DNA of 64,000 bases from Chrysomallon squamiferum (Eukaryota > Animalia > Mollusca), in the NCBI GenBank assembly GCA_012295275.1, contig CM022670.1, positions 19,654,001 through 19,718,000 of the forward strand, read 5' to 3'. The notes under the pieces are model-generated. The model was not told the origin of the DNA, searched no databases, and worked only from the letters and a program-made list of their open reading frames with translations. Made by a program: the position numbers and the translations under genes. Shown here piece by piece: positions 3,783-63,752 of this stretch (position 1 is the first letter of the stretch; each line of letters begins with the position of its first letter).

Positions 3783-4062
3783 TCATTTTATCTTATCATA
3801 TGGAGATGGCTGGCTTATGGCGTTCGTATTCAGTTTCTCATAGGTATTGTTCAGTTGCAGATCATTTTGCAATGATGGTGAAGACTTTAGATAATGATGC
3901 TTTGTTTTAGGTTGAGGAACAGGCGGTGGTATCTCTGTTTTATTACTTTCAGAAGCCGGTCTTGATGTGCTGCTTGGCATTGCAAGGTGTTCATCTGTGT
4001 GTTTTATCTCAGAGAATTTCACTGCTGATTCTCTCTGCTTAGATCGATTTACTTGATACAAC
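3783..4062 (-). CDS. Gene A cytoplasmic tail exon
   Basis: tttttccag acceptor; RLYQVNRS...PPPVPQPK...[24 protein letters not shown]; the end is homologous to the B/C tails. Confidence 0.85.
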
Positions 4063-7000
4063 CTGGAAAAAGTGAATAAAACACACAACACTAGTTAAGG
4101 CTATATTACTGGTAACCGAACATTGTTTTGCTGCTGTTTTGTTGTTCTTTTTCTTCTTCTTCTTCTTCTTCTTCTTCTTCATATTATTATTATTGTTATT
4201 ATTATTATTATTATTATTATTATTATTATTATTATTATTATTATTATTATTATTATTATTATTATTATTATTATTATTATTATTATTATTATTATTATTA
4301 TTATTATTATTATTATTATTTAGATGTTTGGTCAAAGTTCCGATATATTTACTGACACCATATAGTGCAATGCTTTCTATTAATTAGGACTGATAAAATT
4401 TTCAAAATTGTTCTTTACCTGATAATAATTATTATTGAAATTATTAAAAGCAGAAGTAATATTCCAACAGTGCTCGCCCAAACTATGGTTACCGGGTCCA
4501 AAGTTTTCTCTGAAAAACATTATAAAATAGTTTCAATGATAATTGAACATAAATATACAATTGAACATAAATATAATAGTACATAAATATACAAATGATG
4601 ATATGGATGATTATTATTATGGTTGAAGCCTAACACTATCAAACTATCATACCTGCTGTTGACGAGTTGTACTGTTTGCACAGAGCTCCATAAAACCCTT
4701 CAGTGCAACCTCCTAAACACTGTCCTGAAACAGTGTCACATGAGTTAGCGTGCTTACAGTTACCACACGTAAAGTCACAGTTCAGGCCGTAGTTTCCAGC
4801 GCTGCATTCTGCAAAAAAAAGAAAAGAAAACGAAAAGAAAAAGAAAAGTTCATGTGCAGTAGCTATCACTGATTAATGAAAATTCAGTTTAGATAAAGTA
4901 TTTAATACAGTTCACAAACAATTTTGTTTTGGTTATTTTAAAATGTAATTAATTACTTTTCTTTATTTTCATTTGTTTTGTTTTATTCTGTTTTGATTTT
5001 AAATGCAAAATAGAAATGTTTAATGATGTTTCGAATAATCTAACCTTAGAATCTGGCTATGCTCTTGGTATATATGTATGTATATGCGCATATATATATA
5101 TATTATATAAAGCATCTGATACCGAGGACAACAAATACAACGTCCTTTGGTAGATCAATTGCAAAATAGCATAATGGACAGATGCATCCAGTGAACCAAA
5201 TCCTATACCTTATTTTATAGAATAGTTGGGCAATTATTACTAATACATAGGCTAGATTGAAATACATACTAATATCGTGTGTATTTGAATTATTTCAATT
5301 TACTTAGTTTACTCGTTTCATTTCAGCGAAATTTTAAAGTTAAAATATTTTATACCATCAAGACACGAAATTCCTTGCCATCCTCCAATGCATCCATCAA
5401 TACAACGTCCGGTTTCGACGTCACATTTTCTACTACCGTAACAGTGTCTGTCAGCACATTCTTGACTGCAGGATTCGCCATATTTGCCTGACAAACATTC
5501 TAAAATATATTAAAAGAGTCTTTGTATGAGAAAGAGATTCATATTAATACAATCAAAGTTGGACAGTTATTACTAATACATGGGTTAGATTGAAATACAT
5601 ACTAATATCGTGCATATTTGAATTATTTCAATTTACTTAGTTTACTCGTTTCATTTAAACCGTTATTTCAGCGAAATTTTACAGTTAAAATATTTTATTC
5701 AAGACACGAAATGCCATCCTGGAATGCATCCATCAATACAACGTCCGATTTCGGTCACATTTTCTACTATAACAGGATTCGCCATATTTGCCTGACGAAC
5801 ATTCTAAAATATACATTAAAAGTCTTTACATGAGAAAGAGATTCATATTAATACAGACAAACAGCATGATTTTTAAATAAATGAAAGAAATATTTCCATT
5901 TTCTTCAACGAATTATTTAAATCTTTAAGTGTTGCTGTTTTTTTTTTTTTTTTTTTTTTTTTCATTTTTTTTTTTCCCCGAAATACATTACACTTAAAGA
6001 TTTAGTCAGTGCATTATTGATACTGATTTGTCAAATTAAGCTATAACCGTGATAGAATTAACTTGCCTTTACACGAATAACCATTTCCGGCGAAACCACT
6101 TCTGCATGTACACGTATAAGACCCAACAGTATTGTTACAGTTCGCGTGGCGATCACATGGATTCTGTGTTAAGCATTCGTTCACATCTTAAGTAAATATT
6201 AAAACAGGAATGTACACATATTATTATATTATTACCAGTAGTAATAAATTTAATGTGGCAGTAACGTGTGTTAGTAGCAGTAATAGGGCTAACAGAAGAA
6301 GAAACGCTAGTAGTAATATTATAAGTAATAACAACATTAATGTTAATGAGAGTAGTACTAACAGAGCTAGTAGTAGTAATAGTTGTATTATTAGTAGTAA
6401 TAACAGTAGTAGTAGTAATAGAAGTAGCAACAGAAGTATCCCTATGTAATCAGTTTTAACAATGTTTTGAGGAGTTTCGTATAATTTCATATTAAATTAA
6501 AACAGATAAGTACCTGAACATATTGTACCGTTTCCTGAAAAACCACTTGGACATATACATCTGTATGACCCCGCTGTGTTCAAACAGTTTGCATTGACAT
6601 CACATGTGTTTTGAGCATGACAATGATCGATATCTAAAAATGAATAAATTAATACATACACACGTACATATACATATATATATACACTACATACAAAAAA
6701 ACATACATGCGTTAACTTACAGCTATTAATGTACGAAAATAACAAGAGCACTTTGTCATATAAATTTATTGTAGATAGTTTTAATGATCTATGTGTTATT
6801 CACCTGTGCAGTCAACACCACTCCAACCCGGTTGACAGCCGCCTACGTCACAGACACCAGTGTTTACATCACAGACAGAAGATGTGTTAGAACAGTGCCG
6901 ATCTTTACAGAATTTATCACAGTCTGAACCATATTGTACACCAACCTCGCATCCTGCAACAGTAATGGTAAATTACAAATGTATATACTCTGTATAAATT

Positions 7001-63400: not shown

Positions 63401-63752
63401 TATTTCATAAATAACATTTCAGACTTTATTCTGGGGTGTTTGTATGATATAGTTGAATAGGAAAGTCGAAGATTGATTTAAGTTTATGAATTCATTAAAA
63501 ATTAAATCATGATAATATATGATTTGATCGTTTCATAAAATTACTTGATACATATCACTATAATTATTGTTCGCAATATAATTGCATAGCATTTCATATT
63601 AAATATTGCATATATTTAAATTATGACAGATTTTTATTTTTATTAAAAGCTGTGATTGCGCCACCTCCGCCCACAAACGTCATCATTGGAACTGTCGTTG
63701 GATTATTCGTTGTTATTCTTTTAGTTGTGATTTTAGTTATTGTAATAATGAG
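48383..63752 (+). CDS. Gene D (3'-partial): F-type lectin + 14 EGF-like modules + TM; tail exon expected beyond the window
   Basis: SP1 48383-48461 (or SP2 49769-49847), 52270-52476, 53090-53290, 54270-54842, 55488-55637, 56190-56336, 57215-57361, 58240-58386, 59265-59411, 60403-60546, 61683-61826, 62308-62451, 62771-62905, 63650-63752; frame open throughout. Confidence 0.85.
49769..49847 (+). CDS. Gene D alternative signal-peptide exon SP2
   Basis: MAATWICFRFLFCYLILGSGKTFASS + G|GTAATT. Confidence 0.7.
52270..52476 (+). CDS. Gene D F-type lectin exon 1
   Basis: As gene C but NVAWNK and SIHT. Confidence 0.9.
53090..53290 (+). CDS. Gene D F-type lectin exon 2 (24-nt in-frame deletion)
   Basis: FKWRRNG-ARQSNNPEHLCG...; lacks VHVYANTA. 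Confidence 0.87.
54270..54842 (+). CDS. Gene D exon with five internal EGF-like repeats
   Basis: 573 nt; homologous to 32671-33243. Confidence 0.9.
55488..55637 (+). CDS. Gene D EGF exon
   Basis: MCQSGTTYGTNCNKLCRDRHCRNSQQSCAIETGSCNGQCQIGWAEVDCT. Confidence 0.85.
56190..56336 (+). CDS. Gene D EGF repeat exon 1
   Basis: 147 nt; RHCFNSLQSCPT. Confidence 0.87.
57215..57361 (+). CDS. Gene D EGF repeat exon 2
   Basis: 147 nt; RHCWNSQESCPI. Confidence 0.87.
58240..58386 (+). CDS. Gene D EGF repeat exon 3
   Basis: 147 nt; RHCWNSQESCLI. Confidence 0.87.
59265..59411 (+). CDS. Gene D EGF repeat exon 4
   Basis: 147 nt; RHCWNSQESCLI. Confidence 0.87.
60403..60546 (+). CDS. Gene D EGF exon
   Basis: Matches 39027-39170. 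Confidence 0.88.
61683..61826 (+). CDS. Gene D EGF exon
   Basis: Homologue of 40306-40449 (CVRGCKPGWLNVTC). Confidence 0.88.
62308..62451 (+). CDS. Gene D-specific EGF exon
   Basis: CDEDFYGDRCNFSCSERQCFENQTCSHETGECINGCLPGWEGISCTN; C|GTGGGT. Confidence 0.85.
62771..62905 (+). CDS. Gene D-specific membrane-proximal EGF exon
   Basis: CSLGRYGRNCNSSCGECKSGDCDKVSGNCTQGCSDGYEGVLCQQ; resembles gene A exon 4653-4808. Confidence 0.85.
63264..63373 (+). CDS. Gene D duplicated, truncated TM exon (candidate tail-less terminal exon, or pseudo-exon)
   Basis: VFAPPPPTKALIGIVIGFIVVILCFFFSFFFTDTM-TGA; acceptor kept, normal donor lost. Confidence 0.5.
63650..63752 (+). CDS. Gene D transmembrane exon
   Basis: VIAPPPPTNVIIGTVVGLFVVILLVVILVIVIMR; AG|GTTTGT phase 2. 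Confidence 0.85.

Follow-up and report, generated by a model that had tools for sequence, protein, structure and literature searches.

A partly decayed cluster of lectin-EGF receptor genes with paired-tyrosine tails in the genome of Chrysomallon squamiferum

A stretch of 64,000 nucleotides from the mollusc Chrysomallon squamiferum (assembly GCA_012295275.1, contig CM022670.1, positions 19,654,001 to 19,718,000), here called the window, carries a cluster of genes for membrane receptors in which an F-type lectin domain is borne on a stalk of EGF-like modules and followed by a transmembrane (TM) segment. Three of its four genes end in a cytoplasmic tail with a pair of tyrosines resembling the tyrosine-based activation motif of immunoreceptors (ITAM). 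The cluster is real, partly decayed and part of a gastropod-wide receptor family. With moderate confidence, we propose that its members are activating recognition receptors coupled to Src and Syk kinases, forming a tandem gastropod cluster in birth-and-death turnover.

Four spliced genes (A to D) were rebuilt from splice sites and two relics are present, in agreement with the first-pass annotation of this DNA, which had described four genes and two relics sharing a signal peptide, a lectin domain, a stalk with 1-14 intact EGF-like modules and a membrane-spanning segment. Gene A lies on the minus strand (11741-3783), and genes B (16116-24433), C (27182-41878) and D (48383 to beyond 63752) lie on the plus strand. 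All four follow a common exon plan: the signal-peptide exon, homologous among the genes, is succeeded by a pair of lectin exons, by stalk exons in phase 1 and by an exon for the TM segment. The terminal tail exon is present in A, B and C; the tail of D lies beyond base 64000, outside the window. Exon borders are AG/GT, with a single GC donor as exception (A, 6067). In a Pfam scan of 23 exon translations, lectin exon 1 of all four genes passed the cut-off for F5_F8_type_C_2 and both calcium-binding EGF (cbEGF) exons of A passed that for EGF_CA; the remaining stalk modules gave weak DSL or laminin-EGF matches only. Counted by exon, intact EGF-like modules number five in A (three MEGF-type, two cbEGF), one of three in B, 13 in C and 14 in D. 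The TM segments reach a peak hydropathy of 2.8-3.7, and the tails of A, B and C comprise about 92-102 amino acids. The window genes hold a galactose-binding-like domain, MEGF modules and a TM segment in combination. A Notch-ligand reading of the weak DSL matches (one of nine MEGF-type exon queries at the cut-off) is excluded by the lectin head and the tail. As assembled, C is the sole undamaged gene, with an open frame of 899 amino acids. The base composition of the window is about 29% GC, simple repeats are abundant, and a self-BLAST gave 202 matches of at least 60 bases, which mostly represent a single gene unit in several copies.

Near the C-terminus, all three window tails contain YxxL-x10-YxxI, which bears out the earlier claim of a phosphotyrosine tail in A, B and C; the pair also occurs in relatives from Gigantopelta and Haliotis. 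When the tails are shuffled, a pair of this kind arises somewhere in the sequence in 0.4-1.1% of 20,000 shuffles. Between A and B the final 26 residues are 58% identical and the remainder 17%, and between B and C the ratio of non-synonymous to synonymous substitution rates (dN/dS) of the tail is 0.34. Each of the three tails satisfies the relaxed, Draper-like ITAM YxxL/I-x6-12-YxxL/I, and phosphorylation of their tyrosines is predicted. Cytoplasmic NPxY was found in none of the three (one Gigantopelta relative has NPYY). No intracellular protein tyrosine phosphatase (PTP) domain is present in A, B or C, which stop after the tail. In Draper, the pair Y934/Y949, 15 residues apart as compared with 14 in the window, binds the tandem SH2 domains of Shark directly, and a receptor phosphatase is described as excluded from Draper clusters (PMC6219719). 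The oyster receptor CgIgR, with YTEL-x8-YEKL, is reported to co-immunoprecipitate with Syk (PMC6994640). By analogy, the window receptors may work in a mode like that of Draper or CgIgR, and stalk length could tune the exclusion of phosphatase from receptor clusters.

The distribution of the pair was followed in relatives of the window genes. An exhaustive search with the close homologue P0005 (42-56% identical) gave 2142 proteins at E 0.001; the analysis was made on 150 of the 2142 matches, those listed, a sample biased towards relatives of this one query. Window-type EGF modules are present in 22 of the 150 and a TM segment (hydropathy cut-off 1.9) in 10 of these 22; the tail count covers these 10, and not the 128 proteins that lack EGF or the 12 that lack TM. 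Among the TM-bearing relatives listed (n=10), tails of at least 70 amino acids have the tyrosine pair in six of six cases, five as strict YxxL/I-x9-10-YxxL/I and one with a spacer of 12, ending in YDVV, tails of 26-45 amino acids have it in none of four, and a PTP motif was found in none of the 10. Long-tailed proteins among the matches listed are Gigantopelta and Haliotis models, and the short-tailed ones include Haliotis and Babylonia. A word search with a tail profile gave 838 candidates, none at E 0.001; tail homologues were found by local BLAST against the retrieved relatives.

F-type lectins bind fucose through the motif H-x24..26-R-x-D-x4-R/K, which supplies a His-Arg-Arg triad (PMC5712786). 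P0005 matches striped-bass FBP32 with E 1.7e-16, and its predicted structure (pLDDT 86) has F-type lectins as all of its top 11 Foldseek matches; as modelled on this homologue, the lectin-domain fold is F-type. RxDx4R is kept in B, C and D. In place of the triad His, A has Leu, B has Gln and C has Ser; A has lost RxD as well. The triad is complete only in D, as H-x27-RxD-x4-R, where it adjoins an eight-residue deletion: 24 nucleotides are missing in frame from lectin exon 2, corresponding to the strand modelled at positions 101-106 of P0005. C and D differ by two residues in lectin exon 1, one of which is the triad His (TCC vs CAC; 30687, 52383). For the cation motif h2DGx, B (AVDGI) and A (GVDGK) have near matches; C and D have GVDEQ. 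Of the earlier reading as a glycan-sensing signalling family, the conserved ITAM-like pair is borne out; glycan sensing is unsupported, given the incomplete triad in A, B and C and the lost strand in D.

MEGF10/11-like models of Gigantopelta and Haliotis form the family to which the window genes belong. Two word searches yielded 11 and 7 matches, the named animal ones from Gigantopelta aegis and Haliotis, and the closest proteins are RefSeq models of these genera, named MEGF10/11-like or uncharacterised (for example XP_041374466.1, XP_041359102.1, XP_041374075.1, XP_048256558.1). They share with the window genes an F-type domain (28-60% identity to the window lectins), EGF modules, a TM segment and a tandem-tyrosine tail, and several sit together on one chromosome-length contig. 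They differ in carrying automatic names only, in that B, C and D group apart, and in that domains of abalone type keep the triad His more often (overall, it is kept in 9 of 29 matches). No function of these models was found in print. A 14-row lectin tree places B, C and D together (88/94 support, unstarred) and A on a long branch of 2.28 changes per site among Gigantopelta rows. In Atlas, several mollusc-dominated clusters have the same head and stalk, with best scores of 0.96-0.97, the first being maybe the query's own cluster; a mollusc cluster resembling the receptor PTP (RPTP) kappa, with the same Pfam head and a score of 0.76, is a lead, and a search with the TM segment and tail of a relative gave nothing above 0.84. 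The relatives P0027, P0026 (Babylonia) and P0147 (Pomacea) are very long (1400-2400 amino acids), and P0027 and P0026 have 8-9 lectin-matching stretches each. A symbiosis-specific origin of the family is excluded, because abalone have it.

Birth-and-death turnover, also proposed in the first-pass annotation, is borne out by relics, broken exons, tandem exon arrays and an exchanged TM module. C and D are collinear over 26.7-40.65 kb, their identity climbing from 83-89% to 98.9% before it breaks off. Downstream of the break, C has an EGF exon resembling that of A and then a TM segment and tail resembling those of B, whereas D has other exons; the TM segment of D is 19-27% identical to those of A, B and C. 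Since the stalk is nearly common and the 3' ends are different, one stalk has been joined to two membrane modules. The possibility that C and D are two alleles assembled side by side is excluded by intron 1, 83-89% identical, and by the differing 3' ends.

Comparison with sequencing runs covered 4551 and 4401 bases of the cluster, leaving out B and the 5' half of D. In the DNA run X1, 24 of 1505 bases differ from A in the lectin region and 0 of 982 around the TM exon (Fisher p 7e-6, with regions picked post hoc and linked, non-independent sites). This variation is polymorphism, as had been anticipated. In the lectin exons, four codons are changed non-synonymously and two synonymously, and two deletions preserve the frame, one of them lying in a conserved strand; the EGF exons add two further non-synonymous changes. 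Around C, where parts of the introns are without X1 contigs, some X1 contigs skip 726 bases of an intron and others loop from the tail back to the final EGF exon. On contigs resembling paralogues, X1 depth is 523 for a tail piece and 1139 for an EGF piece, as compared with about 44 for A, which is a hint of many copies without giving a copy number; depths near 39000-39130 were set aside here.

Contigs from three RNA runs of one study fall on EGF and tail exons. One contig of X2 departs from the genome exactly at 40449, the end of exon 40306-40449, into sequence that matches the next exon of D at 29 of 30 letters, and further joins of one exon to another are present in X3 and X4. Transcription and splicing of the family follow from this, and spliced transcripts, on which the initial proposal had been made to depend, do exist for paralogues. 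RNA contigs on gene A cover repeats only. The EGF exon at 38988-39134 has very high contig depth in DNA and in all three RNA runs, which may reflect a far more abundant paralogue or another repeat.

In the mechanism that we propose, a multivalent surface ligand, microbial or altered-self, would cluster the receptors; it is probably not plain fucose, because the triad His is mostly lost. A Src-family kinase would phosphorylate both tail tyrosines, and the tandem SH2 domains of Syk or Shark would dock, leading to uptake or ERK signalling. The YVN of B and C, a Grb2-binding motif, may in addition recruit Grb2. Exon duplication, loss and recombination would alter ligand site, reach and tail independently, many copies decaying in the process. 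It is likely that the receptors trigger uptake by immune cells.

Several findings weigh against this mechanism. In all three tails the spacer of 10 falls outside the x6-8 and x6-9 definitions of ITAM, the distal SPYxKI (SPYDKI or SPYEKI) also fits the consensus of the tyrosine-based inhibitory motif of immunoreceptors (ITIM), and the upstream D/E-x-x-Y element is missing, there being no D/E at -3. None of the four copies combines a whole lectin fold with the full His-Arg-Arg triad, so that glycan binding is unproven, and three of the four genes (A, B and D) have lesions as assembled. Lectin dN/dS among the window paralogues is 0.24-0.45, and the X1 coding changes in A (six non-synonymous vs two synonymous codons) are near neutral expectation; positive selection on the lectin is thus unsupported. 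RNA contigs at least 99% like C number 0 of 55, 0 of 35 and 0 of 34 in the three runs, for which reason transcription of the exact window genes is not established, and placement of these genes in haemocytes is unsupported.

The tail tyrosines can be read differently, the distal S-x-Y-x-x-I as an inhibitory signal recruiting SHP2 or SHIP, or both as clathrin-sorting signals, which would make the proteins inhibitory or scavenger-type receptors. Such a reading would accommodate the ITIM match of all three tails as well as a spacer exceeding that of vertebrate ITAMs, and Yxx-hydrophobic is a sorting motif. However, the ITIM-type residue at -2 is lost in several relatives (NDYDRI, NDYDKI, NDYAAL), in which the pair and its 9-12 spacing are kept, and we regard inhibition or sorting as unlikely.

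Somewhat less probable still is a role in non-immune adhesion or in gamete or matrix recognition, comparable to oyster bindin or Drosophila furrowed. F-type domains act in fertilisation, and bindin is described as sharing an intron in mid-domain, triad loss and variation in repeat number (PMC5712786); predicted alternative first exons (see below) could allow tissue-specific use. This role is opposed by the conserved, signalling-type tail and by the immune association reported for the same ectodomain type in Biomphalaria (PMC12297450). A differential-expression supplement for G. aegis, taken as the oesophageal-gland list, also speaks against it, with five 'fucolectin' and seven 'multiple epidermal' matches, unmatched to tailed genes.

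The cluster could also be mostly decaying debris of a family working elsewhere in the genome, its variation being neutral. Decay would fit the damage seen in A, B and D, both relics, a number of broken exons and the long lectin branch of A, and likewise the excess of non-synonymous changes in nine stalk repeats (9 of 10 variant codons). On the other hand, C is open over its full length and the frame of A is open in X1, B vs C dN/dS is below 1 in the lectin, TM and tail comparisons, and stalk exons vary less than flanking intron (10/147 vs 50/381 sites); we therefore hold general decay to be improbable. Allorecognition, raised in the first-pass annotation, is very improbable: clustered, variable receptors with tyrosine motifs do resemble Hydractinia Alr and Botryllus fester/FcoR as described, but the 23 exon translations contain no Ig or sushi domain (Pfam), and the closest relatives are solitary snails, for which we know of no fusion-rejection system.

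Gene A starts with a signal-peptide exon at 11660..11741. Its lectin exon 1 (8405..8600), which has lost the His and the first Arg/Asp of the fucose motif, has a strong donor after 8409 and a weak in-frame donor after 8405; lectin exon 2 (7654..7877) starts one base short with respect to the strong donor. With that donor, the reading frames of the two exons are offset by a single base. The weaker donor four bases on restores the frame (520 amino acids), and the X1 haplotype is in frame owing to one additional base at the acceptor of lectin exon 2, the frameshift being either an assembly slip in a G run or a real allele. The stalk (4653..6953) has five exons: MEGF-type at 6804-6953, cbEGF at 6514-6633 and 6067-6186, and MEGF-type at 5356-5499 and 4653-4808. 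The intron after the second cbEGF exon is of GC-AG type. A recent local duplication (5224-5861) left a broken EGF exon near 5700-5800. The TM exon (4419..4509) is followed by the tail exon (3783..4062) with YEKL-x10-YDKI and the stop. In relic 1 (12550..13750, plus strand), an EGF exon is degenerate and a tail exon is 87% like that of B, with a stop and a frameshift.

Gene B comprises a signal exon (16116-16194), lectin exons at 18550-18756 and 19278-19499, a stalk (20414..23037), a TM exon (23877-23979) and a tail exon with YEVF, YVN and YDKL-x10-YDKI (24124-24433). The first stalk exon (20414-20557) has an in-frame TGA, the second (21815-21961) is intact, and the third (22905-23037) has a 14-nucleotide deletion. 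Without the two broken exons (1 and 3), B has a frame of 355 amino acids. In Gigantopelta, a related gene has models from which one lectin exon, both of them, or the TM segment is absent; since exons are omitted there, double skipping in B is plausible by analogy.

Gene C consists of a signal exon (27182-27260), lectin exons at 30574-30780 and 31448-31672, a stalk (32671..40990) of one exon with five 108-bp repeats and eight single-module exons, four of them in tandem units of about 1 kb, a TM exon (41131-41266) and a tail exon with YDKL-x10-YEKI (41569-41878). Relic 2 (about 44300..45330, plus strand) retains a 5' flank and a remnant of intron 1, the coding part of the signal peptide being missing. 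Gene D has a signal exon (48383-48461), lectin exons at 52270-52476 and 53090-53290 (the latter with the deletion), a stalk of 14 modules (54270..62905), common with C up to 62027 (C 40650) and different thereafter, and two TM exons, a broken duplicate near 63264, left by a recent local duplication (63026-63719), and an intact one at 63650-63752.

Intron 1 of both C and D contains a second signal-peptide-like exon with an ATG and a phase-1 GT donor (28624..28702 in C, 49769..49847 in D), and a degraded copy lies near 17604-17685. The C and D copies, which differ at one of 79 bases, lie in a block with an identity of only 83%; this suggests alternative first exons. Arrays of exon plus intron, in units of about 1025 bp 88-98% alike, occupy 34600-38200 and 56080-59700; codon 21 of the arrayed exon is Arg, Trp or Phe. 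A 108-bp six-cysteine repeat is present in 4.9 copies within one exon (32691-33212; 54290-54811), and this array is a second way of stalk lengthening.

The family itself is already known, a point that the first-pass annotation had left unconfirmed: the ectodomain type is published for Biomphalaria (PMC12297450), and according to source data of PMC7895826 the fucolectin and MEGF orthogroups count 96 and 86 genes in G. aegis and 87 and 162 in C. gigas. For this reason, possible novelty is confined to the tail and to the way in which tail classes are combined, and does not extend to the lectin-EGF-TM layout; no publication on an ITAM-like tail in such a family was found in a search with little coverage of subscription journals. 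It is conceivable, although we consider it doubtful, that gastropods have a paired-receptor system on one lectin-MEGF ectodomain, in which ITAM-like tails would activate via Syk, RPTP forms such as those of the Biomphalaria SudRes1 resistance region would oppose them, short-tailed or soluble forms would serve as decoys, and recombination would swap ectodomains among tail classes, as between C and D. Fucolectin and MEGF genes run to dozens in molluscs and are poorly annotated. A region of Biomphalaria linked to schistosome resistance is marked by this type of ectodomain, and signalling has an explanation only in the phosphatase-bearing forms. The tyrosine pair is conserved between vent snails and abalone and, if our reading is true, would give a variable family of invertebrate receptors an activating arm.

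Among known systems, SudRes1 of Biomphalaria sudanica is described as a resistance-linked group of clustered MEGF/galactose-binding RPTPs with copy-number change and EGF loss between haplotypes (PMC12297450). By this description it shares the galactose-binding-like head, MEGF stalk, single TM segment and clustering with the window genes; its members have intracellular phosphatase domains, whereas the tails of A, B and C are only about 100 residues long and end with the tyrosine pair, and the term 'ITAM' does not occur in the main text of that paper. F-type lectins such as eel AAA, striped-bass FBP32 and oyster bindin have the same fold, the RxDx4R seen in B, C and D and, in bindin, an intron inside the domain; unlike them, the window heads are membrane-anchored on an EGF stalk and have lost the triad His in A, B and C. 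MEGF10, Draper and CED-1 have a related type of EGF stalk, and Draper a long-spaced ITAM binding a Syk-family kinase, but they are described as invariant and carry an EMI head and NPxY (PMC8092387), in contrast to the multicopy, variable window genes. No EMI match was found in the 23 exon translations, the F5/8-type domain following directly after the signal peptide; lacking EMI and NPxY, the window genes are not members of this group. In CgIgR, likewise a molluscan receptor, a C-terminal tyrosine pair of similar sequence is linked to Syk and ERK; the differences are an Ig ectodomain and a spacer of 8 (PMC6994640). An Aplysia survey, checked for comparison, held nothing relevant in the part available. 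Hydractinia Alr and Botryllus fester/FcoR are described as clustered polymorphic receptors with ITAM- or ITIM-type tails on other ectodomains, so that the analogy concerns organisation only; KIR and Siglec are further analogies of cluster organisation.

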